Positions 23,701-42,847 of a stretch of DNA of 42,847 nucleotides are shown in pieces. Within the stretch, counting starts at the first letter, position 1; every line of letters starts with the position of its first letter. The notes under the pieces are model-generated. The model had not been told where the DNA came from. It did not search any database and worked only from the letters and a program-made list of their open reading frames with translations. Origin of the DNA: a virus; IMG/VR virus record IMGVR_UViG_3300021400_000071, positions 1-42,847 of that record; one strand, 5' to 3'. The translations under genes and the position numbers were made by a program.

Positions 23701-23708
23701 GGTGAAAC

Positions 23709-23942: not shown

Positions 23943-24138
23943 AGGAGTAGTGATACCTGGCTGGAAGATTCCGGACAACTGCCTGACATGCCCGTTTTTC
24001 CATGCCGTAGTCGCAAACGGCGGGCATGGCTCATATATCGAATGCACGATTCATCACCGGGAACTGCCGAAGAACAGGCTCCGGGAGCTGATGCTGGTGC
24101 GGGATGAAAACTGCGAGCTGAAAGAGGTGGGCGCGTGA
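23935..24138 (+). CDS. 4-Cys small protein, paralogue 1
   Basis: RBS AAAGGGAGG. GWKIPDNCLTCPFF...C...NCELKEV. Confidence 0.55.
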   Translation: MTEGVVIPGWKIPDNCLTCPFFHAVVANGGHGSYIECTIHHRELPKNRLRELMLVRDENCELKEVGA

Positions 24139-26368: not shown

Positions 26369-27804
26369 CAGAGATTGTGATGCCGGAACCAAATCCGAAA
26401 CAGAAGCAGTTCATGCTGGCAAAGCAGGATCATGTGGCCTACGGAGGAGCGAGAGGAGGCGGAAAGAGCTGGATCGCTCGATGGATGGCTGTGATCCTGG
26501 CACTGTCCTTTGCCGGAATAAAGATCCTCATTGTCCGTAAAACTCTGAAAGAGCTGAAGAACAACCATATCAATCCGCTGAAAAAGATCCTGCGAGTCGG
26601 CAGGAAGGATGCGCTAGCAAAGTATAACGCAGCAGATAAGGAATTCACATTCAAGAATGGATCTGTCATATCGTTTGGATACTGCAGAAACGAGGCGGAT
26701 CTTGACCAATATCAGGGAGCTGAGTATGACGTGATCTTCCTGGAAGAAGCATGCCAGCTGCAGGAGGAATGGATCAAGAAGATGGTGCTGATGATCCGTG
26801 AACCGAACGGGCTGCCAAAGCGAGTGTACTACACCTTGAACCCCGGCGGGCCCTCTCACGGATATTTCAAGCGGCTATTCATCGACCGGCATTTCGAAGA
26901 GGATGAGGATCCGAGCCGCTATGCATTTATCCAGGCGCTGCTGTCGGACAATGAGCCGCTGATGAAAGCAAAGCCGGAGTACAAGAGCGAGCTGATGAAC
27001 CTGCCGCCCAAGCTGAGAAAGGCATGGCTGTACGGAGACTGGGACGTCTTTGAGGGCCAGTTCTTTGAGGACTTCCGGATCGAGCCGGATGTGACGGCGG
27101 CCGTCGAGCACGGATGCGAGGATGACAGGGAGAAGCTGCGGGAGGATCACCGCTGGTGCCATGTGATCGATCCTTTTGATCTGAGCGTGGGCGAGGCCAG
27201 AGGCTGGAACATCTTCCGGAGTTATGACTTCGGTTACGGGAAACCCTTCTCCTGCGCATGGTGGGCCGTGGACTATGACGGGGTAATGTACAGGATCCTG
27301 GAGCTGTACGGATGCACGGACACACCTAATGAGGGTGTTAAGTGGACGCCTGACCAGCAGTTCGCCGAGATCGCCAGAATCGAGCGGACACACCCATGGC
27401 TGAAGGGAAAGAAGATTGACGGCGTCGCGGATCCGGCCATCTGGGATGGCAGCCGTGGCGAGAGCATAGCAGAGACAGCCAGTAAGTACGGGCTGTTCTT
27501 TAGGCCGGGAGACAATGACAGGATCCCAGGCTGGATGCAGGTGCACTACCGCCTGCAATTTGATGAGCGGGGACTGGCCCGCATGTATATCTTTACCAAC
27601 TGCAAGGCATTTATCCGAACCATACCGCTGATGATGTACGACGAGCACAAGGTGGAAGACCTCGACACCAAGCTAGAGGATCACGTGGCGGATGAGACGC
27701 GGTATGCCTGCATGGACAGGCCGATCTCACCGATGCGCCCGGTGAAAGAGAAGCAGATATTTTACGATCCGCTGGATCAATTCAAGGACAAGAAAAGGAG
27801 ATAA
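26365..27804 (+). CDS. terL: Terminase large subunit
   Basis: Walker A AYGGARGGGKSW, Walker B-like VIFLEEA, and a C-terminal nuclease-type region. Confidence 0.9.
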   Translation: MTEIVMPEPNPKQKQFMLAKQDHVAYGGARGGGKSWIARWMAVILALSFAGIKILIVRKTLKELKNNHINPLKKILRVGRKDALAKYNAADKEFTFKNGSVISFGYCRNEADLDQYQGAEYDVIFLEEACQLQEEWIKKMVLMIREPNGLPKRVYYTLNPGGPSHGYFKRLFIDRHFEEDEDPSRYAFIQALLSDNEPLMKAKPEYKSELMNLPPKLRKAWLYGDWDVFEGQFFEDFRIEPDVTAAVEHGCEDDREKLREDHRWCHVIDPFDLSVGEARGWNIFRSYDFGYGKPFSCAWWAVDYDGVMYRILELYGCTDTPNEGVKWTPDQQFAEIARIERTHPWLKGKKIDGVADPAIWDGSRGESIAETASKYGLFFRPGDNDRIPGWMQVHYRLQFDERGLARMYIFTNCKAFIRTIPLMMYDEHKVEDLDTKLEDHVADETRYACMDRPISPMRPVKEKQIFYDPLDQFKDKKRR

Positions 27805-27807: not shown

Positions 27808-29823
27808 ATGGACGAATACACAAGGCTGCCCATGCAGCAGGGCGGCTTAGACCAGCCTGCTGACCGTGGAATGCCTATACAGCAGGAGCAGAGCGATCAG
27901 ACACCACTGCGAGCGATGCGGAATATGCAGCACGTGCAGCCGGTGGACAGTGAGCAGTGCAGGAAATGGAACGAGCTGCTGAGCCGGTACAAGAGCGGCA
28001 AGACAAAGCTGGAGAAGCGGCTCCAGGATGCGGAGAAATGGTGGCAGCAGCGCAATGAGTTTGCTGAGGACCCGAACACAGACTACGGAGATCTGAAGAA
28101 GGGCTTCCGCTCACGGAGCGCATGGCTGTTCAACGTGCTGGCAAGCAAGCATGCAGACTACCATGAGGCATATCCGACGCTGAACTTCCTTGCACGGGCG
28201 GAGGATGACAAGGCCGAGGCCAAGATGCTGAGCAAGATTGTGCCTGTCGTCTTGAAACAGAACAACTTTGAGGAGACCTATGACATGGCGGGCTGGCAGA
28301 AGATCAAGACCGGCACCGGCGTTTACAAGGTGGTATGGGATCAGAACAAGCTGCACGGGCTGGGGGATATCTCCATCCTGAGACGCAGCCTGCTGAATCT
28401 GTTCTGGGAGCCGGGCATCACGGACATACAGGATAGCAAATGCTTCTTTGACGTGGAGCTGGTTGACATCGAGCAGCTCCAGGATGACTATCCGGATCTG
28501 GACGTGCGGCAGCTTCGGAACGGAGGCATTGAGCCGACAAAGATCCCGACGGAGGACAACGTGCCGACGGATGACAAGGTAGCACTGATCGACGTGTACT
28601 ACAAGCGGAGAGGCAAGCTGCATTACTGCAAGTACGTGGGCGAGACCGTTCTGTACGCCACAGAGAACGACAATGAGGTATTCAAGACCGACAGAGATCC
28701 GATGACCGGCACAATTTCTGCAGTCCACACCAGAGCGGCTGACGGGCTTTATGACCATGGCCTGTATCCTTATGAGTTTGATGTTCTGTATCCGCTGGAG
28801 GAATCCCCGGTGGGCTTCGGCTATATCGACGTGGCTGCCAACGCCATGACACGCATTGACCTGATGAATCAGAGCTTCATGGCAAACGTGATGGCGAATG
28901 CGAAGCCGAGATACTTCAAACGCACGGACGGCGGGATCAATGAGGCGGAATTCCTCGACACGAACAAATCCATCGTGCACGTCAACGGCCAGATCGACGA
29001 GCAGGAGCTGCGGCCTATCGAAGGAAAACCGCTGACAGGTGATCAGCTTTCCGTGCTGAACAGCACCATCCAGGAGATGAGAGAGACCACCGGCAACACC
29101 GAAGCAGGCAACGGCATCAAGCAGTCCGGCGTGACCGCAGCGAGCGCCTATGCAGCCCTGCAGGAGGCTTCCGGAAAGACAAGCCGTGACAGCACACTCA
29201 CTTCCTACCGGGCTGTAGCAAAGATCGGCTACATGGTATGCGAGCTGATCCGGCAGCACTATGACCTGCCGAGGCAGTTCCGGATCACCGGCGACATGGG
29301 GCAGGATATGTACGTTGCCTTTGACAACACCGGCATGCAGCCGCAGTGGCAGGGCATGATCGGCGGAGTGAATATGGGCTACCGGGTTCCGGAGTATGAC
29401 ATTGACGTCGTACCGGAAAAGAACACCAGCTATACCAAGATGGCACAGAACGAGCTGGCGCTGCAGCTGTACAGCGCGGCATTCTTCCGGCCTGACAATG
29501 CAGACCAGAGCCTAGCCTGCCTCAGCATCATGGACTTCGACAGCAAGGAGCAGGTGGAGCAGAAGGTAGCACAGAACGGAACCCTGTTCACGCAGCTGCG
29601 GCAGTGGCAGCAGCTTGCACTGCAGCTGGCGGCACGCTATGAGCCGGGCATGGTGCAGGGCCTCAGCCAGGCGATCACCGGAGACACAGGAGCAGCCATG
29701 CCGACGGGCGGTAGCGTGGAGCCCGTGAAGGTGAACACAGGAGAGCCACAGGAGGCTACCATCGTACAGAATGCCCGTGAGAGAGCAGCCACATCGGCAC
29801 AGCCGGGAGGGAGCACAAAATGA
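27808..29823 (+). CDS. Portal protein
   Basis: 671 aa, directly after TerL. Call rests on size and position. Confidence 0.7.
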   Translation: MDEYTRLPMQQGGLDQPADRGMPIQQEQSDQTPLRAMRNMQHVQPVDSEQCRKWNELLSRYKSGKTKLEKRLQDAEKWWQQRNEFAEDPNTDYGDLKKGFRSRSAWLFNVLASKHADYHEAYPTLNFLARAEDDKAEAKMLSKIVPVVLKQNNFEETYDMAGWQKIKTGTGVYKVVWDQNKLHGLGDISILRRSLLNLFWEPGITDIQDSKCFFDVELVDIEQLQDDYPDLDVRQLRNGGIEPTKIPTEDNVPTDDKVALIDVYYKRRGKLHYCKYVGETVLYATENDNEVFKTDRDPMTGTISAVHTRAADGLYDHGLYPYEFDVLYPLEESPVGFGYIDVAANAMTRIDLMNQSFMANVMANAKPRYFKRTDGGINEAEFLDTNKSIVHVNGQIDEQELRPIEGKPLTGDQLSVLNSTIQEMRETTGNTEAGNGIKQSGVTAASAYAALQEASGKTSRDSTLTSYRAVAKIGYMVCELIRQHYDLPRQFRITGDMGQDMYVAFDNTGMQPQWQGMIGGVNMGYRVPEYDIDVVPEKNTSYTKMAQNELALQLYSAAFFRPDNADQSLACLSIMDFDSKEQVEQKVAQNGTLFTQLRQWQQLALQLAARYEPGMVQGLSQAITGDTGAAMPTGGSVEPVKVNTGEPQEATIVQNARERAATSAQPGGSTK

Positions 29824-30158
29824 CAAAGGTGCATTACTATCCGAAGACCCTTGACCTGATTGTGAAGGGCCATGCCGGACAGGCTGAGAAGGGCGAAGAC
29901 CTTGTATGTGCTGCCTGCAGCACACTGGCAAATACCTTGGAGGCTGTCTTCCAGATCCAGAAGGACATGCACGGTGTGGTGGTGCGGAACGAGAAGACCG
30001 CACAGTTTCACGCATTCATCCACAGGAACGAGTGCCAGCTGATGGCACAGGCTTTTGTAGTGATGGAGACCATAGCAACCGGATATGCAGCACTGGCGGA
30101 GCAGTTTCCGGATTACGTGGAATTTGATGTTATCACGGAGGAAGGAGAGGTAGAATGA
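29820..30158 (+). CDS. prp: Prp-like cysteine protease (ribosomal-processing protease family)
   Basis: 112 aa. GHAG...GEDLVCAACS places His and Cys in the pattern of the Prp catalytic dyad. ATGA-coupled to the portal gene. Confidence 0.7.
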   Translation: MTKVHYYPKTLDLIVKGHAGQAEKGEDLVCAACSTLANTLEAVFQIQKDMHGVVVRNEKTAQFHAFIHRNECQLMAQAFVVMETIATGYAALAEQFPDYVEFDVITEEGEVE

Positions 30159-31759
30159 TCTATTACGACATAAACGGATTACCCTTCAACGAGAAGGGCA
30201 ACCTGGTGATATCTGCCGGGACGGCAGGCAACCGGCAAATCGCAACACCGGCAGACTATGCCAACCTGTCCACCCCACCTGCATACATCCCGGACACAAA
30301 CACCATCGTCCGGAATACGCAGCGAAGCAGCGCCTTTGACGGTGTCGAGACCACACTGGGCGGCGTGCCGATCACGCAGGGAGCAACCCCAACGGGGGCA
30401 GGATCAGGAGCAGGCAGCGCATCGAGCAGCTACAGCAGAACAACCAGATCCACAGGCAGCTACACCGGCAGCGGGCAGAAGCCTGCACCCTATGAGAGCA
30501 ATGTGCAGATGCCTGGACCCTATGACGGATCCAAATACTATGAGAACGTGGGCACGCCGGAGAGCAATGCACCGGACTATTCCCTCAACTACATGATGGG
30601 GCCGGTGGGGCAGGCATACAGCGACGCCATGCAGCGCATCGCAGCAGATCTGGGCGAGAGACCAACCTACAACAACCAGTACGACCAGATGCTGAATGAT
30701 GCCTATCAGAACATCGTGAACCGTGATCCCTTCAGCTGGAGTGCGGAGGATGATCCCTTCTATCAGGACTATGCGACCCGCTACACGCAGCTGGGGCAGC
30801 AGGCCATGCGTGACACCATGGGACAGGCTGCAGCCCTCACAGGCGGCTACGGCAACACCTATGCTCAGTTTGCGGGACAGGGAGCCTACAACCAGTACAT
30901 GGCAGCACTGGCGGACAAGCAGATCGAGCTGGAGAACAGGGCCTACCAGAGATACCAGGATGCAGGCGATGAGCTCTACAGACAGTACAGCATGCTGGGA
31001 GATCTGAGAGACACCGAGTATGGGCGCTACCGTGATGCCGTGAGCGATTACAACTACAACCTCGCACTGATGCAGGCACAGGAGGCGGAGGACTATGAGA
31101 GAGCCGTCTACAACAATAACCTGCGGATCCAGGCGGAGCAAGAGGGCTACGGCAGATACCGTGACGCTCTGAACGATGCCCGCTACCAGGATGAGATCGG
31201 ATATGGCCGTTACCGTGACGAGGTGGCAGATGCCCGCTATGCAGACGAGCTGGGCTACAGCCGGTACAGAGATGCGCTGAGCGATTATCGGTATGACGAT
31301 GAGACCGCATACGGCAGATGGAGAGACGCCGTGAGCGATGAGCGGTATGAGGATGAGCTGGCATATCAGCGTTACCGTGATTCCGTGGGCGATAGCCAGT
31401 GGGAGCAGGAATTCGGCCTGAAGCAGTACAACACCTACAACTCCGGAAGTGGATCCAGTGGTAGATCTTCCGGCGGTGGAAGCAGATCTTCCGGTGGCGG
31501 TGGAGGCGGTGACGTCTTTATCGGCGGCCCGCTTGACGGACAGAGCGCCGGATCCGGAGATGCGCTGACACTGAGCGAGGTGGAGAGCACACTTGCAAAC
31601 GCAAAGCACAGCGGGCAGGTGGAAGACCTTGTAAGATCTGCACAGGCAGATCTCGATGCAGGCATGGCGAACTTTACGCAGGCGCAGCTCGATGCGCTAC
31701 TAAGCAAATACAGATATGACACAATGGCAAGAAGGAATGTATCTTCCTATCAGAAGTAA
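30155..31759 (+). CDS. Head-module protein with 18-aa tandem repeats and Gly/Ser linkers
   Basis: 534 aa. Five clean repeats [GA]Y[GSQ]R[YW]RD[AES][LV]xDxRYxDE[ILT] at 31145..31414, with degenerate copies upstream. Confidence 0.6.
   Translation: MIYYDINGLPFNEKGNLVISAGTAGNRQIATPADYANLSTPPAYIPDTNTIVRNTQRSSAFDGVETTLGGVPITQGATPTGAGSGAGSASSSYSRTTRSTGSYTGSGQKPAPYESNVQMPGPYDGSKYYENVGTPESNAPDYSLNYMMGPVGQAYSDAMQRIAADLGERPTYNNQYDQMLNDAYQNIVNRDPFSWSAEDDPFYQDYATRYTQLGQQAMRDTMGQAAALTGGYGNTYAQFAGQGAYNQYMAALADKQIELENRAYQRYQDAGDELYRQYSMLGDLRDTEYGRYRDAVSDYNYNLALMQAQEAEDYERAVYNNNLRIQAEQEGYGRYRDALNDARYQDEIGYGRYRDEVADARYADELGYSRYRDALSDYRYDDETAYGRWRDAVSDERYEDELAYQRYRDSVGDSQWEQEFGLKQYNTYNSGSGSSGRSSGGGSRSSGGGGGGDVFIGGPLDGQSAGSGDALTLSEVESTLANAKHSGQVEDLVRSAQADLDAGMANFTQAQLDALLSKYRYDTMARRNVSSYQK
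31145..31414 (+). repeat. 5 x 54-nt in-frame tandem repeat
   Basis: Units start at 31145, 31199, 31253, 31307 and 31361. They are conserved at protein level and differ at synonymous sites. Confidence 0.8.
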
Positions 31760-31768
31760 GGAGGAGCT

Positions 31769-34700
31769 ATGGCAAACAAGACAAGCGCATTCAGAGAATC
31801 TGCGAAGAAAATAGGCATTTACCAGCCGAGATCAGTGGATGAAGCGAATGAGATGCTGAATGAGCTGAATACACGCTCACAAGGCATAACAAATTATCTG
31901 AATAGCGATAAAGAATCGTCCGTACAGGATCGGATTAAGTACCAGGATCAGATAACAGGCGCGAGGAGACAGCTTGATACTATATCGAAGCAGTATGGAA
32001 CCGATCTATCTGAGAACCAGAAATGGTACGATGAAGCAAATTCTGTCATGCAGGACAGGAAAAACGCCTACGTCCAGAGAGTTATGCAGACACAGGCGGA
32101 GAATAACTGGGGGCAGCCGGACAACCGGACAACTCTGCAGAAGGTAACGGACAAGCTGCTGGGCGTAGACCGCACCAAGGTGACCGGCGGAAAGACTGAC
32201 TGGGGAAAGCTGGCCGAAGGCGCAGCCGTCAAAGGAGCCAATCAGGCGAATGCCGGATTCTGGAGCGGCGTCGGGATCTTCAACGATATCGGGAAGAAGA
32301 TCACCAACAGCAAGGTGGGCAACTGGCTTTTCGGAGATCTGGCCGACGGGGCGAATGCGATAGCAACCACAACCATCAACGGGGCCATCGACACGATCAA
32401 CTCCATTTTTGGAACGAACTATGCCGGGATTAAGAACGGGCAGAGCGCTCTGGACTTCCTTGTTTCCGATGCACAGGCAGGCAAAGCAAATGCTGAAGCC
32501 AAGTATGAAAAGAATGCAAACACCAGCAGGGCCGCACAGATCATTGACCAGTTTGGCACTTCCACCGTGGCCGCTATCCCGATGGCCATCGAGGCGGCTA
32601 TCCTGGCACCGACGCAGGCAATGCAGGCGGCACAGGTAACTACCTCCGGGCTGTCCTACTTCTCCGGGATGCAGAATGCAAGAGGAGTAGAAGCTATCGG
32701 CATGATGGGAAGAGAAGGGCTGAACAAGCTGTTCAGGAACCCGCAGTTCTGGACTTCCTACCTGCAGGCTGCCGGTGACGGATATGAGAGTGCGAAAGAA
32801 GACGGCATGAACCAGGACGATGCTGCCGTCTATGCTCTTACCAACGGCTTTTTCAATGCCATGGTCGAAGTCGGCGGTGCAGATGAGGCACTGGGCGGCA
32901 TTCAGAACCTTCCGATGCGGCTGAGACAGGCAGCGGAGAGCGGTAACAAATCTGCCGTCGTGAACTGGTTTAAGGACTCCGTGCTCGGTGAAGCATGGGA
33001 AGAAGTGCAGCAGGGTGCAATCGAACGCGGGACTAAGTCCTTTTTCGGGCAGGACGTGCCGATCTTTTCTCTGGATCCGACGGATAACCGGGCAATCATC
33101 AACCCGTACACAGCCGGACAGGAATTCCTCGGCGGCGCTGTCGTCGGCGGCGTACTCGGAGGCGGGCAGGTAGCAGCGAATAGCGCAGTGCAGAGCGTTT
33201 CTGACAGCAGAACCTTCAATGGCGATGCCAGTGCTCTGATAAAGGCAGCAAAGAACTCGGCACAGGAAGCCGATCAGGCCAGCATTGCGCAGATTGAAAG
33301 CGCTATGGCAGCACGTAAGGGCAGAACCATAACGATGGGCGAGGCACGCACGCTGCAGGAGATCGCCTCCCGCACGGGCAACATGCACGCCTACGTCCAG
33401 AACATTCTGCAGGCAGAGAATCAGCAGCGGGCCGATCAGCAGCGTGAGGCAACCCAGCAGAGCCGGGTACGCAGGTACCTGGAACGGGTGCGTGCCGGTG
33501 AGGTAGACCAGACTGGAACAGCAGACACCAAGGGCGCTACCATCCAGTACGAAGGGCGGCAGGCCAAGGTGGACTTTGTGCGTGACGGAGATCAGAACCG
33601 GGTGCGGCTGACCTTTGATGACGGAACGGAGCGCACGGTGAGCTACCAGGAGGCAGCTGATGCGGGCCTCGACGAGAACGTGAGGAACCTGATGGTGGCA
33701 CTCTCCGCTATCGGGCCCAATGCACCGGCAGCCTACAGCGTGTATGAGAGCGATCAGGAAGTGGGCAGATACGCAGCGGCGATGGATGAGGCCATCAATC
33801 TCTATGCGGCACAGGGACAGGATGTCCGAAAGGCCGCAGCCGCTGCAAGGGAAAGCAATTCCCCGGCCATGATCACCTATCTGACAGACGCACAGCTGGA
33901 GCTTGCCCAGAGCCTGGGCAGCAAGATCTATGAGCAGAAGCAGACGCAGGTGAAGGAGGCCGGTGCCAAGCTTGCCGAGATCCGGCAGGCGGCACAGCAG
34001 GCCATGAGCGCACAGGATGTGACGGCGACCGAAGGACTGGCAGCAGTGAATGCAACCCTCACGGATGCACGGCAGCACCTGAAGAACGTACAGCAGGCAT
34101 ACAACGACACCATGGAATATCTCGACGAGATGGCCGCCAACGGGCAGGAAGGAACCGAGGCATATCAGAATGCCCTTGAGCAGGCAAACGCGCTCAGAGA
34201 CGATCTGGACGGCACCCAGAAGGTAATTGAGGCACTGGAGGACGAACGGAAGAAACTGCAGGCCCGGCAGCCGATCAAGCGCAAGCAGGGCACGGTGAGC
34301 TTTGAGGGCGGCACCATCAACGGCGAGAAGGTGAACGGTGTTGACCGGAGCAAGCTTACCAGACAGCAGAAGAACGTGGTGGCCATGGTGGAAGCACTGG
34401 CCGACGCCGTGAATGTGGACTATGTCTTCTTTGACGGAGATGCCAAGGGCAACCAGGGCGCCTACGTGCAGGGCGGCACGGTGTACATCAACGTGAATGC
34501 CGGTATGGCAGCCAACAAGGCACTGGCAGCGGCCACACTGAGCCATGAGCTGACGCATTATATGCAGGAGTACGCACCGGAAGAGTATGAGCAGCTGAAG
34601 CAGTTCATCATCTCCAATGTGCTGCAGAAGGGCGAACTCGACCGGCTGGTGCAGCAGCAGCTCCGTCTGGAGCCGAACCTCAGCTATGACCAGGCACTGG

Positions 34701-37700
34701 ACGAAGTGGTAGCAAACGCCTGCCAAACCATGCTGCAGGACAGCAAGGCTATTGCCAAGCTGGCACGGCAGAACATGACGCTGGCGGAGAAGATTGCTGA
34801 CTACATCGAGGATATAACAGCGAGACTCAAGGCGGCCTTTGAGGACGTCAACTACAAGGATAACCTGCCGCTGTACAATGCCGTCAAGGCCATGGAAGAT
34901 CAGCTGGATGAGATGCAGAGGCTGTGGGATGCCGGTATTGAGGCGGCGACGGAGAACTATAATGCTCAAAATACGGTAAGAAATGCTCGCGAACAGGCAG
35001 AAAATGCTCAGGAAACGCAAAATGTGCCCGAAAATGCGGAAACAATGCCCGCTGCAGCTCAGAGAGCGGATACGCAGGAAGAAAGCAATACCCAAACACA
35101 GTTCCAGATGTGGGACACCGTTGAAGAAACCGACAGGCTGATTGCTGTGCACAACAAGAGCGTAAGCGGCCTGCGTAGAATGCTGCAGCGGCATGGCGTG
35201 CCTTTCCCGTCTATCGCAATTAAGAAGGCCGGAACACCTCATGAAGGATTCGGCGACGTATCAATCGTGTTTCCTCGCTCTACCATCGACCCGGAGGTAA
35301 ACCGGCAGAACAGGCTGTACAGCAACGACGCATGGACACCGACAGAACCTATTGAGGAGTACGACGTCGGAGATATGTACCGGTATCATAAGAAATTCCG
35401 GAAGATGATTGGGGAAGATGTGTTCAGCGGCCTCAAAGGATCTTCTTATCTGGAAGAGAGCGATGTGTCCAGAAAGCTTCAGTACAACAGAGGCGACATA
35501 TTTGCGGCAGTGAAAGATATCAGTGCCGTGAAATATGCCTATCTGAAGAGCATTGGACAGGAACCGCAAATATCTGGAAAGGCGGGAGATTTGTTCACAG
35601 GAGGCAACTTTTCAAACGAAGAAGTGCTTGCTGTGTTTGATGCTTTCGGTACTGGCGGCATGGAGGCGATGGAAGAAAACGACGATGCAACACGCCAGAA
35701 GATTCGGGATGCACTCAATGAATGGTTTGCCGAGAAGTATGACGGAACAAAGCTTGAAAAGAAAGCTCGTGAAAGTAAGCCATACGACAACAGAGGAGTA
35801 TGGCCGGATGATTTCAAGCGAGCATGGGAAAACTACAAGCAGAACAACTACTCTGTAAAGGTCGTTCCGGATTACGATGCACTTGACAGAAGTCTAAGAA
35901 ACAATTCAGAAGTTCTTAATGATCCTAGATACAAGGAATGGATAGAGGAACAGTTCTCCGATCTTATCAAAGACAAGGGAATTCCGAACGGAAAGGACTA
36001 TTACACACCTTCCGGCAATGTTAGAAGCTTTAAAGCCCGGCATGTGCCTGCCACACTGGAAAACATCGTTGCTCAGATGCAGAAAGAACAGGAACGCGGC
36101 GTCGGCGTTATGGGCGTCAACCTTAGAGGGGCTGCCACAAAAGCATACCGGAACGTGGAAGAGATGCGTGCCGATAGTGGGAGACTCTTAGGAACGCACG
36201 TTTCAGATGATGTTTATGACAGCTATATGAAAGGGTTTCAGGACAGGCTGTATGAACTGACACAGAGAGCTGCCAATGGTAGTGAACGGTGGGAGGTGAT
36301 GGATAGCGCTCAAGAAATTCTTCTGGAAACTCTCAGAGATTCTACCAGCAAGCAGAATATGGACACCAGGCTGAGGCGAGAGGCACAGTGGATTAATTAC
36401 AGCAAAGAGCTGGCAAATGATCTCTGGGCGCTCCGAAATGACGTACAGAACATGCCTGCCCCGTATTTTGAAGCAAAGCCGCGTAGAATCGTATACCCGG
36501 AGGAAGCGCTTGCATATATCCTTCCGGACAATGCGGACCAGGACGTGGTGGATCAGCTCAACCAGATAGGCTACAATGTACTGACCTACAAAGCCGGAGA
36601 TGAGGCAGACCGTCTGGAAAAGCTGAACAGTGTGGAAAAAGCCAAGTTCCAGGCATGGGACGAGCAGATGGCTCCGGAGATCCGGCAGCGGATCGAGGAT
36701 GCTGATGCACTGGAAGCCCGCGTGCGTGATTACTTCCAGAGCGTGCCGGAGGACAGCAATTATTATCTCAGTGATGACGAGATCAGCGAGATGATGGAGC
36801 TTGACCGGTATGCAGTGGATGGAGATATCAGAGGCGCTGAGCGGATCGTTGAGGATCTGTCTGAACTGTCCAAGAATCTATACGGCGACGAGAAGACACA
36901 AGCCTACGAGCTGATGGACGCACTGATTCAGCACCTGTCCGTGATGCAGCAGGATAACTGGACGGAGATGCGGATTGCTCAGAACAAGACCTTTGCAGAG
37001 TGGTACGGCAAGAAGCATCCGAGCCTGTACTATCCTGGCTATGAGATGGGCAAGCTGAATGTGGACAAGGAAGTAAACTATCTCCGGGAGCTGATCGACA
37101 GCGGAACACTGACGGCAGAGGACGAGGCAGAAGCGCAGCGGCTGTATGATGCGATGCGTAGCAGCCCATATTCCACCTGGTATCAGAAATGGGATAACAC
37201 CGGCGATGACACTTCAAGCGAGGATGCAGGCAGGAGAATGGCCTATGCCATGATTCAGGCCGAGAACAACGCACTGAAGGATGCAGTCAATGCCCTGAAT
37301 GAACTGACCAACAAGCAGAACACCACCATTGCCAGACTGGAAAAGGCCCTGAAGCTGACCAAGACACCGGAAGTCCGGCAGGGCGATGCAAACCGGCTGG
37401 CAAGGCAGCTGGTGAAGGACCACAGCAGCACGGCTGATGCGTCCCGCGTGGCGGCTGAGCTGAAAGCCATGGGCGATTACATCCTGCAGAACAAGAAGAT
37501 CGATGCGGACACCGTGAAGCAGAGAGCCAGAGCGATTGCGGCGGAGCTCGTCGAGAATGCGGAAGTGGTCGATGACCTTGGTGGAGAGCTTGCCACATAC
37601 CGTGGTATCGCGGATGATATCAGAGGCAAGAAGCTGACGATAGACGAGGACTTCATCGGAGAGTTGGGAACTGCAGACGGATACGACGCATTCCGGAAGG

Positions 37701-40700
37701 CAAACTTCGGCAACTTCACACTGGCGAAACGCGGCACCGGAGAATCTGCCGGACGTGATGGATATACCACCGTCGGCGGCTTCTACCAGACGCTGCAGCA
37801 GGCATGGGGTGAGGCATACTTCCCGAATGTGGCCAACGAGGGCGAACAGATCCAGGTGATCGCAGACATGTTCCAGCGGGCGAAGGGCATCACCGTGAAC
37901 CCAAACGAGGACTACATGGGCGAGGCCACCGAGGAGCTTGCCAACCGGATTGCTTTTGATGTGATGGATGGCATCATGAGGCCGACCCCTCCGACGCAGG
38001 CAGACCGGCAGAAAGCCAGACTCGACGAGGCAAGGCAGGAAACCATGACTGCAGAACGGGAAGCTGAGAGAGCCGGAGAACGTGCCGCAGCTACCATCTA
38101 CGATCTGACCACCGCACTGGATTCGGCACAGAGCCGCCAGAAGACACTGATGGAATCCATCCGTGAGCTGGAGAGACAGGGTGAGCTGAGCGAGAAGGAA
38201 GCACAGCGCATGGCCGAGACCATCTACGATCTGAGCATTGCACTGGACAATGCCGAGAGCCGCTACAAAACGCTGAGAGCATCCGCCAGAGAGCGCTACA
38301 GCCAGCTGAGGGAAGAAGGCCGGGCCCGTGCAACGGAAGCCGCAATGCGAGAGCGGGAGAAAGCAAATGAAAGGATCTCCGCTCTGAAAAACTACTACCA
38401 TGATCTGGCAGACCGGGCAAGGGAACGCCGGAACGAGGCAGCCGGATCCACCAAGTACCGGAAGAAGATCCAGCAGCAGGTGAAGAAGCTGTCTGACTGG
38501 TTGATGAAAAACAGCGATAAGGAACATGTGCCGGAAGCCATCAAAGCGCCTCTGCTTGAATTCCTGACGGCAATCGACTTCACATCCAAGCGTGCACTGC
38601 GCGGCGGCGAGCAGACCCAAAATGACGTCAAATTCGGGGCACGGCTGCAGAAGCTACAGCAGATGCTGCAGAATCAGCAGCGGTACATCGACGGCGACGG
38701 AAACGTGCAGCAGGATCTGGGCGGCTACATTGACATCGGGCCGGACATGCAGCAGGTGCTGCAGGACATGGCACAGCGTGTGACCGAAGCCATGGAGACC
38801 GGCGAGACCTACACCATCAACACCATGAGTGCAGCTGAGCTGAAGGATCTGAGCAATCTGATCGCCACACTCACAGCCGGCATCCGGAACATGAACAGCT
38901 TCATGGCGAATGCCCGGTATGAGAGCGTGAGAGAGGCGGCAGCACAGGACATTGAGACCATGCAGAAGCTGGGCAAGGCCAGAGACAGCGACAGCAGCAT
39001 GATCGCAAAGTTCCTGAAATGGAAGGACGCCACACCGTACTATGCGATGAAGCGATTCGGACAGGGCGGCAGAAGCATCTTTGACGGGCTGACACGCGGC
39101 TGGGAGAAACTGGCTCAGCATGCACAGCAGATCATCAGCTTCACGGAGAAAGCCTACACCGACAAGGAAGTGAACGCCTGGAAGAAGGAGATGCACAGCT
39201 TCACACTGGAGGACGGCAGTGAGATCCGCATGACCACAGCACAGATCATGGAGCTGGCCATGCTGCTGAAGAGACCGCAGGCCGTGCAGCACATCACGAA
39301 GGGCGGCATCCGGATCGGCAACATCGAGACCACCGCGAATGGCCAGAAGCGCACCATCACAGACACGACGCACTATCATCTGACAGCTGACGATATCGTG
39401 AATGTCCTGGACACGCTGACTGACCGGCAGCGGGAAGTGGCCAACACCCTGCAGAAGTACATGGCGGAACAGGGAGCCAAATGGGGCAATGAGATCACCA
39501 TGCGGCGCTTCGGCTATGAATTCTACACAGAGGGCGAGAACTACTACCCGATCCGGACGGACGATAACACCAGACCGATGGCTGACACGGACGCGCAGCA
39601 GAACAGTATGTTCCGCCTGCTGAACCTGAGCAGCAGCAAGAGCCTGAACCCGAAAGCCAGCAACGCACTGGTGGTCAATGACATATTCGACACATTTGCC
39701 GACCACATGGCCGATCAGGCAAAGCTGAACGCGCTGGGCCTGCCGATCCTCGACGCGATCAAATGGTTCAACTACAGAGAGCGGATTGACCTGGGTGACG
39801 GAGCCTACAACACCGTGACCATGCAGGCAGCCATGGAACAGGCCTACGGCGAGCAGGCGAAGCGGTACTTCCGGACGCTGATGAAGGACATCAACGGCGT
39901 GACCGAGAGCGGCGACCGAGGCACGGATCTGGCGAGCCGGATGATGAGCAATTACAAGATCGCATCCGTCGGTGCCAACCTGCGTGTGGCGATGCTGCAG
40001 CCGACAGCCTATGTGAGGGCACAGACCGTGATCTCTCCGAGAAACCTGATCCGGGCATTCGCCTACAAGAACGGGATCAAGGAGGCCATGGAGCACTCCG
40101 GAACGGCAATCTGGAAGAGCCTGGGCTATTACGACACCAACATTAGCCGGAGCATGCGGCAGCAGATTCAGCACAACGAGACCATCCGTGACAAGCTGGT
40201 GGAGAAATCCATGAAGATGGCAGAGCACGGAGACCAGGTAACGTGGGGCCGCCTCTGGATTGCCTGCAAGCTACAGGCACAGGACATGAATCCCGGCATC
40301 ACCGGCGACGATCTGATGCAGAAGACGGCAGATCTCTTCCGTGAAGTGGTTTACAGCAGCCAGGTGATGGACAGCACGCTGACCAGATCCGAGCTGATGC
40401 GCAGCCACAGCTTCTGGGATAAGAACCTCACGGCATTCATGGCAGAGCCGACGCTGAGCTACAACATTATGATGGACGCCTACATTACCTATGAGAACGA
40501 TGTGCGGGCAAACGGCAGGCAGGGTGCATGGCAGCGCAATTCGGAGACGCTGCGGAGAGCATTCACGGTGTACATGTCCAGCGCTGTGGTATCCGCCATC
40601 GCTGAGAGCATTGCGGACGCGATCCGGGACGATGACGATGACGAGACCGCAATCGATAAGTTCCTGCAGGCATTCCTTGGTGAGGACAGCATCCTCGACG

Positions 40701-42331
40701 GGAACATGTTCCAGGATGTGATTCTGACCGGGAAGATCCCCTATGCGAAGAACATCTGGAGCCTGCTGCAGGGCTATGAGAATTCTGACATGATCTTCGG
40801 CGGGATCAGCAACCTGATCAAGGTGTTTGAGATCTGGAGAGAGACCGTGCAGCTGGCGACCGGAGACCTTGAGAAGCCGACGAAGGTTACCTACTACGGC
40901 AACATGACCGAGTGGGGCAAGATCTACAAGACGCTGCAGAGCATTAGCCAGATCAGCGGCTTCCCGATCAGCGGCGGGATGCGAGATGTATTCGCCATCT
41001 GGAATGCAACCGTGGGCAACATCGTGCCGTACTGGAAGGTGAAGACCTATGACAAGAACCGCCTGAGCCAGAGCCAGAAGAATGCCTACAACGAGAATCT
41101 GAAGGGATCAGGCATCACGGAGGGACAGTACCAGCAGATGCGGACAGAGATGGACGCAGACGGAAACGGTAGCCTGAAGCAGGACGAAGTCGGCATGTAC
41201 CTCAATGAGCAGGTGAAAGCCAGAAAGATGACGGAAGAGCAGGCATCAGCTGTCTGGGCGACGGCAGGCCCAAGCTGGAAGAAGACCTACAGCGAGTGGA
41301 ACGGGAAGCCAGCAAGCACGGAAGAACCGGCAGCAGCTGCAACCACACAGACAGTCAGACCGGCACCGACGCCGGAGAGCGTGAAGATCACCACCTATGA
41401 CCAGTTCAAGAGCGCTGCACACATCTACAGCGACAAACGGGAGACGGCCTACAACCTCTGGGAATCCTCAGTACAGCCTCTGGGCATTGACCTTGACCGC
41501 TATACGCAGTACATCAACGTGAGCGATGTGAACGACAACGGCAGCGTGACGCAGGAAGAGATGGGTGCCACACTCACCGAAGCCATCAACCGTGGCGAGC
41601 TGAACGGAGATCAGGCCGAAGCAATCTGGCACACGCTTTGGAACGGAGGCCGGAGCAAGACCTACGCATCCTGGGCAGCGAAGAACGCGACCAGAGGAGG
41701 CATGCCGAGTCAGGAAGAGCTGCTGGAGCTGAACGATAACCCGGATCGCTATGATGTTGGCGACACGACAGTGACGGCAGCGGAGATCCTGGCGGAGACA
41801 CTGGACAGAGGACAGCAAATCACAAGGGTGGGCGAGACCTATCAGCTGATCCCCGGCGAGTATCCGAGCAGAAAGCTGTACGGCGAGTGGCTGCCGGTGC
41901 TGAATGAGCTTGGCATTGATCCCGGCGACGTGTGGGAGAACGGCCAGAATGTGACACTGTCGCAGATGAGCCAGTATTACACACCGGAGGAATACCGTGA
42001 GCGCATCGAATACATGCGGCAGAACCGGTGGTGGATTGACCTGGGCTTTGAGGAAGAACCGGCCTATGCAGCAAATGAGCTCTATCTTGGATGGCAGGAG
42101 AATCCGGACTATCCGGGCCAGACCTTTGAGGAATACCTCAACACACCGGAGAGCCAGAGCTGGCTGCAGCAGCTTGCCCAGATGCAGAGCGAGGCAGCAG
42201 GCGGTGAGTGGGACAGATTCACCGGCGGCACTGCGAGAACCTACCGAGGAACCGGCCAAAAGGCCCGGAGATCCGGCGAGGCACTGTACGTCAGCAGGGC
42301 GATGCGCGACAGCAAGCGAGGCCGGAGATAA
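31769..42331 (+). CDS. Giant 3,520-aa multidomain head-module protein (candidate packaged/ejected polyvalent-type protein)
   Basis: Uninterrupted ORF with RBS AAGGAGG. HELTH at 34544-34558. Coiled coil at about 37990-38480. Duplicated EF-hand module at 41111-41680. Basic C-terminus. Confidence 0.85.
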   Translation: MANKTSAFRESAKKIGIYQPRSVDEANEMLNELNTRSQGITNYLNSDKESSVQDRIKYQDQITGARRQLDTISKQYGTDLSENQKWYDEANSVMQDRKNAYVQRVMQTQAENNWGQPDNRTTLQKVTDKLLGVDRTKVTGGKTDWGKLAEGAAVKGANQANAGFWSGVGIFNDIGKKITNSKVGNWLFGDLADGANAIATTTINGAIDTINSIFGTNYAGIKNGQSALDFLVSDAQAGKANAEAKYEKNANTSRAAQIIDQFGTSTVAAIPMAIEAAILAPTQAMQAAQVTTSGLSYFSGMQNARGVEAIGMMGREGLNKLFRNPQFWTSYLQAAGDGYESAKEDGMNQDDAAVYALTNGFFNAMVEVGGADEALGGIQNLPMRLRQAAESGNKSAVVNWFKDSVLGEAWEEVQQGAIERGTKSFFGQDVPIFSLDPTDNRAIINPYTAGQEFLGGAVVGGVLGGGQVAANSAVQSVSDSRTFNGDASALIKAAKNSAQEADQASIAQIESAMAARKGRTITMGEARTLQEIASRTGNMHAYVQNILQAENQQRADQQREATQQSRVRRYLERVRAGEVDQTGTADTKGATIQYEGRQAKVDFVRDGDQNRVRLTFDDGTERTVSYQEAADAGLDENVRNLMVALSAIGPNAPAAYSVYESDQEVGRYAAAMDEAINLYAAQGQDVRKAAAAARESNSPAMITYLTDAQLELAQSLGSKIYEQKQTQVKEAGAKLAEIRQAAQQAMSAQDVTATEGLAAVNATLTDARQHLKNVQQAYNDTMEYLDEMAANGQEGTEAYQNALEQANALRDDLDGTQKVIEALEDERKKLQARQPIKRKQGTVSFEGGTINGEKVNGVDRSKLTRQQKNVVAMVEALADAVNVDYVFFDGDAKGNQGAYVQGGTVYINVNAGMAANKALAAATLSHELTHYMQEYAPEEYEQLKQFIISNVLQKGELDRLVQQQLRLEPNLSYDQALDEVVANACQTMLQDSKAIAKLARQNMTLAEKIADYIEDITARLKAAFEDVNYKDNLPLYNAVKAMEDQLDEMQRLWDAGIEAATENYNAQNTVRNAREQAENAQETQNVPENAETMPAAAQRADTQEESNTQTQFQMWDTVEETDRLIAVHNKSVSGLRRMLQRHGVPFPSIAIKKAGTPHEGFGDVSIVFPRSTIDPEVNRQNRLYSNDAWTPTEPIEEYDVGDMYRYHKKFRKMIGEDVFSGLKGSSYLEESDVSRKLQYNRGDIFAAVKDISAVKYAYLKSIGQEPQISGKAGDLFTGGNFSNEEVLAVFDAFGTGGMEAMEENDDATRQKIRDALNEWFAEKYDGTKLEKKARESKPYDNRGVWPDDFKRAWENYKQNNYSVKVVPDYDALDRSLRNNSEVLNDPRYKEWIEEQFSDLIKDKGIPNGKDYYTPSGNVRSFKARHVPATLENIVAQMQKEQERGVGVMGVNLRGAATKAYRNVEEMRADSGRLLGTHVSDDVYDSYMKGFQDRLYELTQRAANGSERWEVMDSAQEILLETLRDSTSKQNMDTRLRREAQWINYSKELANDLWALRNDVQNMPAPYFEAKPRRIVYPEEALAYILPDNADQDVVDQLNQIGYNVLTYKAGDEADRLEKLNSVEKAKFQAWDEQMAPEIRQRIEDADALEARVRDYFQSVPEDSNYYLSDDEISEMMELDRYAVDGDIRGAERIVEDLSELSKNLYGDEKTQAYELMDALIQHLSVMQQDNWTEMRIAQNKTFAEWYGKKHPSLYYPGYEMGKLNVDKEVNYLRELIDSGTLTAEDEAEAQRLYDAMRSSPYSTWYQKWDNTGDDTSSEDAGRRMAYAMIQAENNALKDAVNALNELTNKQNTTIARLEKALKLTKTPEVRQGDANRLARQLVKDHSSTADASRVAAELKAMGDYILQNKKIDADTVKQRARAIAAELVENAEVVDDLGGELATYRGIADDIRGKKLTIDEDFIGELGTADGYDAFRKANFGNFTLAKRGTGESAGRDGYTTVGGFYQTLQQAWGEAYFPNVANEGEQIQVIADMFQRAKGITVNPNEDYMGEATEELANRIAFDVMDGIMRPTPPTQADRQKARLDEARQETMTAEREAERAGERAAATIYDLTTALDSAQSRQKTLMESIRELERQGELSEKEAQRMAETIYDLSIALDNAESRYKTLRASARERYSQLREEGRARATEAAMREREKANERISALKNYYHDLADRARERRNEAAGSTKYRKKIQQQVKKLSDWLMKNSDKEHVPEAIKAPLLEFLTAIDFTSKRALRGGEQTQNDVKFGARLQKLQQMLQNQQRYIDGDGNVQQDLGGYIDIGPDMQQVLQDMAQRVTEAMETGETYTINTMSAAELKDLSNLIATLTAGIRNMNSFMANARYESVREAAAQDIETMQKLGKARDSDSSMIAKFLKWKDATPYYAMKRFGQGGRSIFDGLTRGWEKLAQHAQQIISFTEKAYTDKEVNAWKKEMHSFTLEDGSEIRMTTAQIMELAMLLKRPQAVQHITKGGIRIGNIETTANGQKRTITDTTHYHLTADDIVNVLDTLTDRQREVANTLQKYMAEQGAKWGNEITMRRFGYEFYTEGENYYPIRTDDNTRPMADTDAQQNSMFRLLNLSSSKSLNPKASNALVVNDIFDTFADHMADQAKLNALGLPILDAIKWFNYRERIDLGDGAYNTVTMQAAMEQAYGEQAKRYFRTLMKDINGVTESGDRGTDLASRMMSNYKIASVGANLRVAMLQPTAYVRAQTVISPRNLIRAFAYKNGIKEAMEHSGTAIWKSLGYYDTNISRSMRQQIQHNETIRDKLVEKSMKMAEHGDQVTWGRLWIACKLQAQDMNPGITGDDLMQKTADLFREVVYSSQVMDSTLTRSELMRSHSFWDKNLTAFMAEPTLSYNIMMDAYITYENDVRANGRQGAWQRNSETLRRAFTVYMSSAVVSAIAESIADAIRDDDDDETAIDKFLQAFLGEDSILDGNMFQDVILTGKIPYAKNIWSLLQGYENSDMIFGGISNLIKVFEIWRETVQLATGDLEKPTKVTYYGNMTEWGKIYKTLQSISQISGFPISGGMRDVFAIWNATVGNIVPYWKVKTYDKNRLSQSQKNAYNENLKGSGITEGQYQQMRTEMDADGNGSLKQDEVGMYLNEQVKARKMTEEQASAVWATAGPSWKKTYSEWNGKPASTEEPAAAATTQTVRPAPTPESVKITTYDQFKSAAHIYSDKRETAYNLWESSVQPLGIDLDRYTQYINVSDVNDNGSVTQEEMGATLTEAINRGELNGDQAEAIWHTLWNGGRSKTYASWAAKNATRGGMPSQEELLELNDNPDRYDVGDTTVTAAEILAETLDRGQQITRVGETYQLIPGEYPSRKLYGEWLPVLNELGIDPGDVWENGQNVTLSQMSQYYTPEEYRERIEYMRQNRWWIDLGFEEEPAYAANELYLGWQENPDYPGQTFEEYLNTPESQSWLQQLAQMQSEAAGGEWDRFTGGTARTYRGTGQKARRSGEALYVSRAMRDSKRGRR

Positions 42332-42340
42332 AAAACAGGA

Positions 42341-42367
42341 AGCAGGAGAGAAATCTCCTGCTTTTTG
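42341..42367 (+). terminator. Rho-independent terminator after the giant ORF
   Basis: AGCAGGAGA-gaaa-TCTCCTGCT followed by TTTTTG. Confidence 0.8.
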
Positions 42368-42370: not shown

Positions 42371-42411
42371 GAGAGGGGGGTTACCACATTTGCCTGCGTG
42401 TCAATTATCAT
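42371..42411 (+). promoter_or_regulatory. Candidate late-operon promoter motif, copy 1
   Basis: GAGAGGGGGGTTACCACA-N17-TATCAT. TTACCA at 42381-42386, 19 nt, TATCAT at 42406-42411. Lies 52 nt before the scaffold ATG. Confidence 0.4.
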
Positions 42412-42462
42412 AAAGACAATGGAGTCGCGGCCCTTAGCCGGAGATTATTAAGGAGGCATCCT

Positions 42463-42847
42463 ATGCACAAATTATTCCAGGAGTTTGACCTGCAGTTCTT
42501 TGCCGGTGAAGGCGCATCATCCGGTGACGGGGCAGGGGCGGCTCCAGCGGGCGTAAGCACCGATATGGGTGCAGCTGCCGACGCCGGGCAGAGAGACACA
42601 CTGGAGACCATGGGCGTGCCCGTGGCGGAAGTCAGAAAATACCGGGCGATGAAGGAGCGGCAGGCATTGCGTGCGGGGATCCCGCAGCAGACGCAGCAGG
42701 CCGATGTACCTAATGTGCAGGACGCCGCTGCAGAAGACAACCAGCCACAGCAGGGAACCGAGCAGCCTGCACAGCAGGAACCGCAGAAGACCCTGAAGGA
42801 CGCACTCAAGGAAAACTCCGAGTGGAACCGGGAAATGCAGAACATGG
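42463..42847 (+). CDS. Scaffolding protein, N-terminal part (continues across the circular junction into 108..766)
   Basis: RBS AAGGAGG 6 nt before the ATG at 42463. Translates MHKLFQEFDLQFFAGEGASSG... The frame stays open to the window end and is in phase (pos mod 3 = 2) with ORF 95..766. Not in the ORF track because there is no stop inside the window. Confidence 0.75.
   Translation, partial: MHKLFQEFDLQFFAGEGASSGDGAGAAPAGVSTDMGAAADAGQRDTLETMGVPVAEVRKYRAMKERQALRAGIPQQTQQADVPNVQDAAAEDNQPQQGTEQPAQQEPQKTLKDALKENSEWNREMQNM
42741..42847. repeat. Terminal overlap, copy 2 (identical to 1..107)
   Basis: Same 107 nt as the window start. Confidence 0.95.

Follow-up and report, generated by a model that had tools for sequence, protein, structure and literature searches.

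The stretch analyzed here, called the window, is the whole 42,847-nt record IMGVR_UViG_3300021400_000071 of the IMG/VR virus collection, and its dominant feature is a giant open reading frame (ORF) that encodes a protein of 3,520 residues among the head genes of a temperate, podovirus-like phage. The domains predicted in this protein and in its relatives, together with the gene neighborhood, support its classification as a phage polyvalent protein of the type described by Iyer, Burroughs, Anand, de Souza & Aravind (2017, J Bacteriol; PMC5512222). The gene and the recognizable parts of its product are arranged as follows (aa, amino acids; nt, nucleotides).

31758..31766, plus strand: Shine-Dalgarno sequence AAGGAGGAG, read from the sequence, of strong consensus form, ending 2 nt before the giant ATG
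31769..42331, plus strand: giant ORF with an ATG start, 3,520 aa plus stop, 10,563 nt
31769..34255, plus strand: N-terminal region, aa 1-829, helical, with many small residues
33122..33178, plus strand: glycine-zipper hydrophobic segment EFLGGAVVGGVLGGGQVAA, aa 452-470, by direct reading
34256..35038, plus strand: zincin-like module, aa 830-1090, with H926-E927-x-x-H930 at nt 34544-34558 and the candidate third ligand E979
35096..36535, plus strand: cargo cassette, aa 1110-1589, made of PBECR5 and a co-travelling partner region of ~250 aa
35096-35767, plus strand: PBECR5 RNase domain, aa 1110-1333 (Pfam PF18814, E=3e-34 to 3e-36)
36536..38260, plus strand: linker and coiled-coil region, aa 1590-2164, ~65% identical to the closest relative, L001
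38093-38179 and 38219-38305, plus strand: 42-aa internal repeat, at aa 2109 and 2151, with 87-nt copies that are 71% identical
38261..41098, plus strand: C-terminal core conserved throughout the family, of which it is the signature module; aa 2165-3110, largely alpha-helical
41066..41692, plus strand: duplicated EF-hand-like module, aa 3100-3183 and 3221-3308 (32% identity, E=3e-13), each copy with one canonical 12-residue loop, DADGNGSLKQDE at aa 3129-3140 and DVNDNGSVTQEE at aa 3253-3264
42260..42328, plus strand: strongly basic tail KARRSGEALYVSRAMRDSKRGRR at the C-terminus (net charge of the last 30 aa, +8)
42340..42363, no strand assigned: terminator-like, G+C-rich hairpin of 10 bp flanked by T-runs, 9 nt past the giant stop

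Sequence comparison indicates that the ORF is not an assembly artefact. An earlier note on this DNA, made from the letters alone, had described a single uninterrupted 3,520-aa ORF filling about a quarter of the genome, in the slot between the portal, Prp and repeat-protein genes on one side and the scaffold and capsid genes on the other. The same ORF was reproduced exactly at 31769..42331 (+), it amounts to 24.7% of the 42,740-bp unique circular genome, and the gene order is as described. Given the base composition of the window, the chance of 3,520 stop-free codons is ~1e-71. The note had also offered a broken ORF in independent assemblies as grounds for refutation, and every complete copy in a relative turned out to be an intact giant, a pattern that supports purifying selection on the whole ORF. 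As computed from the translation, the product has a mass of 394.6 kDa, a pI of 5.0 and only 2 Cys. The evidence for a terminator behind the gene is weak because one hairpin site was found where shuffled sequences give 0.6. Three long antisense ORFs lie within the gene (32006-35242, 37214-38620 and 38654-40228, all on the minus strand; 1,078, 468 and 524 aa) and probably reflect codon bias, not genes; the coding strand of the gene has a strong A>T skew (AT skew 0.2-0.4). NCBIfam and PDB sequence searches with the giant protein gave no match, and Pfam, NCBIfam and PDB are blank over ~90% of its length, as anticipated by the remark that most of it matches nothing that can be named. Processing of the giant by the phage-encoded Prp protease was considered and rejected: the QFF[AS] site occurs in the capsid and scaffold proteins and is found neither in the giant nor in its 6 viral-contig homologues.

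The sole significant Pfam domain in the giant protein is PBECR5, a family of metal-independent RNases of the BECR fold that was defined in the study of polyvalent proteins (PMC5512222). The domain is recovered in the whole-protein scan (E=3.2e-34, 119 bits vs a cut-off of 25) and in the segment-wise scan (125.8 bits vs 25), where it spans profile positions 2-224 of 239. The conserved His of the L(I/M)AxHN motif in the N-terminal helix, a candidate catalytic residue, is kept as LIAVHNKS, and the conserved Thr/Ser residues are present in STIDP and DAWTPT. Retention of this His is in keeping with an active enzyme of the kind known from PBECR families, and catalysis is predicted from conserved residues.

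The cassette that begins with PBECR5 differs from its surroundings in composition and in ancestry. Residues 1130-1589 are encoded with a G+C content (GC) of 0.487 and a third-position GC (GC3) of 0.52, vs GC3 of 0.69-0.79 in the flanks, which confirms a low-GC insert previously placed at about aa 1160-1570. In comparison with L001, which is ~65% identical on either side, aa ~1130-1589 of the window protein replace ~950 unrelated residues. The ~480-aa unit formed by PBECR5 and its partner recurs in protein P0030 (54% identity, 95% coverage) and, at 26-30% identity over 97-98%, in P0033 and P0034. The swapped segment coincides both with the low-GC3 insert and with this recurring unit; the position that it occupies, a bay between the HExxH module and the C-terminal core, holds in this phage a recently acquired unit of ~480 aa that starts with PBECR5.

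Relatives were collected with the segment aa 2165-3110, which retrieved 6 viral-contig and 61 GTDB-genome loci (67 in all). Complete copies number 37, all of them intact giants: 34 come from the genome collection (2,420-4,446 aa, median ~3,190) and three from viral contigs (L001, L002 and L006, ~3,380-4,210 aa), while other copies exceed 4,500 aa and are cut by the fetched flank only. The 3,520 aa of the window protein are therefore typical. The relatives lie in Oscillospiraceae, Lachnospiraceae, Ruminococcaceae and related Clostridia, in metagenome-assembled genomes (MAGs) from human and ruminant guts, and several are prophages inside long contigs. Three loci (L012, L037 and L061) sit in bins labelled Desulfovibrio, Bacteroidaceae and Escherichia coli, all others being Clostridia; these bins most likely contain mis-binned phage contigs and do not reflect host range. 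Clostridium clostridioforme LM41 has been reported to harbor two prophages, phi1 and phi4, with 8 kb ORFs that make up ~20% of the genome and have limited similarity to LPD3-containing Podoviridae proteins, noted in that report and not analyzed there (PMC11318856); likened by description only, these large ORFs plausibly belong to the same family.

In pairwise blastp comparisons only the HExxH module (aa ~830-1090) and the C-terminal core are universal, and the stretch that separates them is mosaic. The conserved carrier consists of an N-terminal glycine-zipper region, an invariant HExxH...E module and a helical core of ~950 aa; the bay between the HExxH module and the core is variable in size and holds differing effector domains of kinds that characterize polyvalent proteins. 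Across the family, HExxH and the core are ~470 to 2,270 aa apart; in the window the interval is 1,239 aa. Pfam scans of 4 + 27 relatives, which register domains in the bay or elsewhere in the protein, show that cargo differs among L002, L003-L005, L006 and the 27 MAG copies. ART-PolyVal is found in 8 of these 27, MuF_C in 5 and LPD1 in 2; LPD3, PBECR3, PBECR5 and a combination of SNF2/ResIII/Helicase_C with an Eco57I-like methylase also occur, and some relatives carry Sno (Strawberry-notch)-type helicases (AAA_34+Helicase_C_4). All of these belong to the hallmark repertoire that Iyer et al. catalogued for polyvalent proteins (PMC5512222). Domains can be combined, as in L023 (MuF_C with ART-PolyVal) and L003 (methylase with SNF2). 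In L008 (7846-13759), a prophage within a contig of 207 kb, a gene of its own encodes the core (1,252 aa); it precedes amidase and holin genes, and its sequence and the end of an LPD1+MuF_C gene of 735 aa share 53 nt. This may be a genuinely split giant, or else a frameshift or assembly error.

These observations place the protein in the polyvalent class, as had been suggested from its architecture. PBECR5 is a diagnostic domain of the class. Several disparate domains are joined in one polypeptide (PBECR5, the HExxH module, the core and the EF-hand pair), one of which scores above a curated threshold. The gene stands in a portal-terminase context (TerS, TerL, portal, Prp, p534, giant, scaffold and major capsid protein, MCP), and the cassette swap against L001 illustrates mosaic content between orthologues. 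The proteins of the Iyer set share this plan, being giant multidomain products encoded among portal-terminase genes, with PBECR RNase and HExxH domains and mosaic orthologues (PMC5512222). Unlike that set, ~90% of the giant, including the core and the N-terminus, matches none of the LPD1-40 and MPTase-PolyVal Pfam models, and the fixed N-to-C order, single cargo bay and obligate upstream partner are not described there.

The module ahead of the bay carries a HELTH motif at aa 926-930, present in a single copy in the protein as first read by eye. HExxH and a downstream Glu are invariant in 7 relatives (alignment A3), and HExxH in 27 more (A5, A6), so that H926, E927 and H930 are invariant in 34 proteins; E979, ~50 residues after HExxH, is invariant in A3 and A6 and kept in at least 90% of A5. 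In the AlphaFold2 (AF2) model, with a predicted local distance difference test score (pLDDT) of 63, the topology is helix, three-stranded sheet, HExxH helix and Glu helix, and both HExxH and the downstream Glu fall on predicted helices, as in the gluzincin motif. The only Pfam hit is to eCIS_core, itself an HExxH domain, below cut-off (E=0.03-0.045). Alignment by hhalign with phi24B gp47 weakly superposes HELTH on HEWFH (E=1.2e-3, probability 19%), and the module of the N4 virion RNA polymerase (vRNAP) gave no match. The original zincin call therefore stands on the invariant HExxH...E and the matching predicted topology, but not on any significant profile or fold match, and the module is likely, though unproven, to be a gluzincin-like metallopeptidase, as judged from motif and model.

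The N-terminal region is 64.5% identical to that of L001, and across 19 relatives the first ~800 aa are conserved at the motif level only (alignment A8; A5 and A6 consensus); a PDB profile search with the region gave no match. Both Gly/Ala-rich hydrophobic segments listed in the earlier note, at aa 264-285 and 452-470, are present, and an equivalent (L/I)GGAxSGG segment is found in relatives ~470-500 aa ahead of HExxH. Past the bay, the linker and coiled-coil region has no significant family match in segment-wise Pfam scans, and it contains the 42-aa repeat at the two places (nt 38093 and 38219) where it had been spotted.

The C-terminal core is 33-70% identical across all 67 related loci and corresponds to the sole PHROG family detected in the protein, phrog_22978, of unknown function (aa 2165-3081, E=5.5e-218). 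Its AF2 model, computed from 27 sequences, has a pLDDT of 75 and a predicted template modelling score (pTM) of 0.66, and consists of helices of up to 60-80 residues with a few small beta inserts. The structural check proposed at the outset, by Foldseek and AlphaFold, thus yielded a helical model, but no significant PDB fold; Foldseek and sequence searches of PDB with the core both returned nothing significant. A polymerase hidden in the core was considered, given a DGDGN motif and the helical fold, and set aside, there being no polymerase among the fold matches. Against BFVD, 83 matches were obtained at E<=1e-3, all of them second or third chunks of very large proteins of uncultured phages, named MuF C-terminal domain-containing, nuclease, PolyVal ADP-ribosyltransferase, LPD-containing, EF-hand, crystallin or GNAT proteins. 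The core thus recurs widely, under no name of its own, at the C-terminal end of giant phage proteins that bear effectors. One BFVD match, a 'structural protein' of Tenacibaculum phage Gundel_1, led to nothing useful in the literature. The alignments (A1, A2) show many invariant polar residues in the core, which may therefore have an unrecognized catalytic role.

Beyond the core, the protein varies between lineages. The duplicated EF-hand module was correctly recognized as far as the duplication and its two loops are concerned, both loops matching the pattern D-x-[DN]-x-[DNS]-G-x-[ILV]-x-x-x-E, but the Pfam matches (EF-hand_6, E=0.004; EF-hand_1, E=0.009) lie below their gathering cut-offs, for which reason Ca2+ binding is a prediction only. 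Loops of this type occur in 5 of 64 relatives. The basic tail, also present as claimed, is found in 2 of 64 proteins, those of the window and L001. By this distribution, loops and tail are lineage-specific additions. Many relatives (L003-L005, L030, L032, L033, L036, L037, L039, L040, L042-L046, L051, L054, L067 and others) terminate instead in ...QKDSLYYAFGWAESxIxEAPWH, without the EF-hand modules and basic tail of the window protein; the extreme C-terminus therefore has a few alternative conserved forms.

The genes around the giant, called from PHROG and Pfam scans, are the following.

834-1967: major capsid protein (PHROG/Pfam), reached from the giant across the circular junction
2338-10160: p177, p695 ('internal virion protein' PHROG), two unknown proteins and the tail fibre
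8112-10160: tail fibre with a C-terminal glycerophosphodiester phosphodiesterase (GDPD) domain (PF03009, E=5.6e-28)
10199-10969: endolysin (PHROG/Pfam)
14688-15968, minus strand: serine integrase (PHROG/Pfam)
25883-26368: TerS (PHROG/Pfam)
26365-27804: TerL (PHROG/Pfam)
27808-29823: portal (PHROG/Pfam)
29820-30158: phage-encoded Prp cysteine protease (PF04327, E=6.5e-13)
30155..31759, plus strand: p534, a repeat-protein gene of 534 aa directly upstream of the giant (PHROG 21397, function unknown)
42463-42847, continuing into 1-766: scaffold gene, 347 aa, with an AAGGAGG Shine-Dalgarno sequence, crossing the junction

The partner p534 has a low-complexity N-terminus, a core of the form DTMGQAAALTGGYGNxYAQ, tandem repeats and a Gly/Ser-rich linker (alignment A9); the repeats, about six in tandem and ~18 aa long, have the form (G)Y(G/S)RYRDAxxDxRYxDE (YGRYRD). 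No match to p534 was found in Pfam, NCBIfam or PDB, a PDB profile search included. Among the 30 loci with at least 900 nt of upstream sequence, a p534 homologue lies directly upstream of the giant in 29, in both of two synteny types. The first, portal-Prp-[p534-giant]-scaffold-MCP, is that of the window and of L001, L011, L020, L025 and L041. The second, MCP-p177-p695-[p534-giant]-lysis, is seen in about half of the relatives (L002, L021-L023, L027, L028, L030, L031, L035, L056, L067 and L071). In both placements the giant gene lies within the structural module and on the same strand. Because the p534-giant pair is found at two positions, it moves as one cassette, and the MuF slot does not define it. 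The suggestion of a MuF-type slot is therefore right in placing the gene among head genes, but the protein has no MuF domain (Phage_Mu_F, PF04233, was not matched even at E<=10 in segment-wise Pfam scans), and about half of the relatives have the gene after p177/p695 near lysis genes.

Nucleotides 1-107 and 42741-42847 of the window are identical, and this exact 107-nt terminal overlap shows that the assembly is circular or has redundant ends, with 42,740 bp of unique sequence. Between the capsid gene and the lysin, PHROG and Pfam scans turned up no tail tube, sheath or tape measure, in agreement with the earlier reading, and the phage is therefore podovirus-like; it is temperate and belongs to a teichoic-acid-bearing Gram-positive host. 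The tail-fibre gene has the lowest GC in the genome (0.39-0.45 in 8001-10000), and looks like a recently acquired, teichoic-acid-degrading receptor-binding module. Other low-GC islands, at 16001-17000 (0.405) and 23001-24000 (0.437), lie in the lysogeny/replication half. The true N-terminus of the scaffold, MHKLFQEFDLQFF|AGEG, contains a Prp cleavage motif, the 223-aa ORF at 95-766 being a shortened version of this gene; the major capsid protein begins with MKDLYTRIIAFLQFF|ADAG, the same L27-type Prp cleavage motif, and the phage encodes its own Prp protease rather than relying on a host enzyme. A 145-aa ORF at 42408-42845 (minus strand) was discarded as spurious because the plus strand there encodes the scaffold N-terminus. 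Searches of GenBank phages by megablast and tblastn found no close cultured relative: the sole match to the giant is one human faecal contig at 26% identity, and the portal has relatives in faecal contigs only, apart from a distant match in Bacillus phage PK1, which is without the giant ORF.

Polyvalent proteins are thought to be first-strike weapons, delivered by phages and conjugative elements together with the DNA. To our knowledge, almost no polyvalent protein has been studied experimentally. In the reading that we favor, at a probability of roughly 0.62, the giant is a conserved carrier with a swappable cargo bay that is packaged in the virion and injected, and whose RNase is released against the host. 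We prefer it because of PBECR5 itself, the polyvalent domains of the relatives, the cassette swap, the HExxH invariant in 34 proteins, the intactness of all complete copies, the structural-gene context, the recurrence of the core fold at the C-terminus of many large effector-bearing viral proteins and virion precedents; moreover, podovirus-like phages such as this one, in which no tape measure or tube is detected, need ejected proteins. The giant would be synthesized late, alongside the head proteins, and a few copies would enter the procapsid, probably via the conserved core and with the help of p534. At infection it would be ejected unfolded through the portal and the short tail, before or with the DNA, and the N-terminal hydrophobic segments and glycine zipper may aid in crossing the Gram-positive envelope. 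In the cytoplasm, the metallopeptidase-like module would cut the polyprotein, and the freed RNase would cleave host or defence RNAs ahead of any phage gene expression. The Ca2+-binding modules might serve as a Ca2+-dependent stability switch, and the basic tail might contact DNA.

Packaging and injection are suggested by what is known of the class and by several precedents. The 3,500-aa vRNAP of phage N4, gp50, is packaged in the capsid and injected, and has an N-terminal helical injection region, a central enzyme and a C-terminal HExxH encapsidation region; the Dar proteins of P1 are likewise packaged and injected (both reviewed in PMC5512222). The giant is near-identical in size to gp50 and is also a podovirus protein, whose packaging and injection would parallel those known for gp50; it differs in having no polymerase domain and in the reversed order of zincin module and enzyme. 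A relationship with N4 vRNAP was rejected, since BLASTP and hhalign against gp50 found no similarity and no polymerase appeared among the fold matches. Relatives L003-L005 carry the same methylase and SF2-helicase dyad as P1 DarB, whereas the window copy has an RNase and P1 is a myovirus. DarB is a head-packaged, injected anti-defence enzyme whose packaging depends on DarA, Hdf and DdrA, three proteins for which no homologues were seen here. The closest precedent is phi24B gp47, a 2,811-aa polyvalent protein of a temperate podovirus that is abundant in purified virions by proteomics, unseen in cryo-EM, and proposed by its authors to be a capsid-packaged ejection protein (bioRxiv 10.64898/2026.04.10.717836). 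The HEWFH of gp47 is the motif weakly matched by the HELTH module, but the cores are not similar, the LPD domains of gp47 differ, its host is Gram-negative and it is encoded at the far end of the late region. PTXU04 gp25, a polyvalent protein found to be essential (PMC11879866), was compared as a possible homologue of the core together with gp47, and both were rejected on negative profile comparisons.

Several observations weigh against this reading. Presence in virions and entry into cells are argued from analogy, and no MuF, portal-binding or capsid-targeting domain is recognizable in the giant by Pfam. The core has no detectable similarity to N4 vRNAP, T7 gp15/gp16, PTXU04 gp25 or phi24B gp47; its top PDB fold match, non-significant, is an ejectosome chain of podovirus PhiM1 (8vb2_A, E=0.023, probability 0.16, TM score 0.10), and its invariant polar residues would also fit an unrecognized enzyme rather than a part in packaging or ejection. 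The hydrophobic segments are short and moderate, with a Kyte-Doolittle hydropathy of 1.2-1.4. Foldseek of the HExxH model retrieved helical bundles only and no zincin, and Pfam and PDB profile searches with this module gave nothing significant. The activity and target of the RNase are predictions from sequence, and no immunity-like gene is evident beside the giant, where the hairpin and the scaffold gene follow.

The strongest rival, which we consider rather unlikely, holds that the giant is primarily a structural ejection protein: an ejectosome or tail extension that forms a conduit across the Gram-positive wall and membrane, in which the HExxH module acts on the wall and the cassette is a secondary passenger. 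A podovirus-like phage in which no tape measure is detected, the long helices of the core, the glycine zipper conserved in the N-terminal region and the nature of the top, if non-significant, PDB fold match all speak for it, and the phi24B authors propose likewise for gp47 (bioRxiv 10.64898/2026.04.10.717836). The giant resembles T7 gp14/gp15/gp16 in being a helical podovirus protein with hydrophobic segments and an expected ejection before DNA; it differs in being one polypeptide rather than three, in having no transglycosylase domain and in carrying cytoplasmic effectors. A relationship with gp15/gp16 was rejected at the profile level (hhalign probability below 1%, with single-sequence templates that limit sensitivity), and similarity to solved ejectosome proteins is nowhere significant. 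The BFVD matches of the core stem from contigs labelled podo-, sipho- and myovirus alike, these labels being computational, the cargo (RNase, ART, helicase-methylase) has cytoplasmic targets, and no lytic transglycosylase or peptidoglycan-hydrolase domain is present. This explanation overlaps with that of a packaged and injected effector carrier, and the two are inseparable in silico.

Two further alternatives are both improbable, to a similar degree. A prophage-encoded, MuF-like polymorphic toxin that kills non-immune neighbors via particles would suit a temperate phage with a serine integrase (14688-15968), several of whose relatives are prophages, and the swappable toxin-type domains (RNase, ART) adjoin head genes as in MuF toxins (Jamet et al. 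2017, PMC5576092). The likeness to these toxins and to Mu gpF/SPP1 gp7 extends to a gene near the portal, exchangeable toxin-type domains in temperate phages of Firmicutes and, in some relatives of the giant, a MuF_C (PBECR) domain. Yet the MuF N-terminal domain (PF04233) is missing, the variable domain is internal instead of C-terminal, hairpin and scaffold gene take the place of a small immunity gene, the giant is 5-10 times larger, and the helicase-methylase dyads of relatives are anti-restriction modules, not toxins. Alternatively, a late intracellular protein that is never packaged could act in host shut-off, in superinfection exclusion or as an assembly scaffold or chaperone. Packaging of the giant is itself inferred, and some polyvalent proteins are processed first so that a fragment alone is packaged, as discussed for P1 DdrB (PMC5512222); against this, the gene is always embedded in a structural operon, in two arrangements, its anti-restriction and anti-defence domains are useful only ahead of phage gene expression, and both precedents, phi24B gp47 and N4 vRNAP, occur in virions. 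A giant tail fibre, adhesin or tape-measure-like protein, suggested by size alone and by the position of some relatives' genes near tail and lysis genes, is highly implausible, as the predicted structure is helical and shows neither a beta-helix nor collagen or Ig repeats. The protein has enzymatic domains with intracellular substrates and coexists with a separate GDPD tail fibre (8112-10160), and no tail-tube or chaperone genes accompany what would, as a 3,520-aa tape measure, imply a tail of ~0.5 micrometre.

The window's own copy of the giant establishes no new principle; it belongs to a large, uncharacterized family within the known polyvalent class. A broader and more tentative proposal, which we regard as possible and at present doubtful, is that the constant parts together with p534 form an uncharacterized delivery chassis of Clostridia phages, in which one structural protein for ejection or encapsidation would have turned into a plug-in carrier and by which whatever effector sits in the bay is packaged, injected and proteolytically released. 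If so, the core would be a new fold whose invariant polar residues may hide an enzymatic or translocation activity, and the chassis would be the Gram-positive counterpart of the T7/N4 ejection machinery, for which we know of no equivalent in these hosts. Phages and prophages of dominant gut Clostridia (Oscillospiraceae, Lachnospiraceae) carry this family in abundance, each phage devoting a quarter of its genome to it, and its clean architecture, with a fixed carrier, one bay and one partner, makes the questions of packaging, cleavage and defence targets directly testable: how a protein of ~400 kDa is packaged and threaded through a short tail, which substrates the metallopeptidase-like module cuts, and against which host defences the exchangeable RNase, ART and helicase-methylase cassettes are directed. 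The bay is also a catalogue of candidate anti-defence enzymes and, potentially, a scaffold for engineered protein delivery into gut anaerobes.

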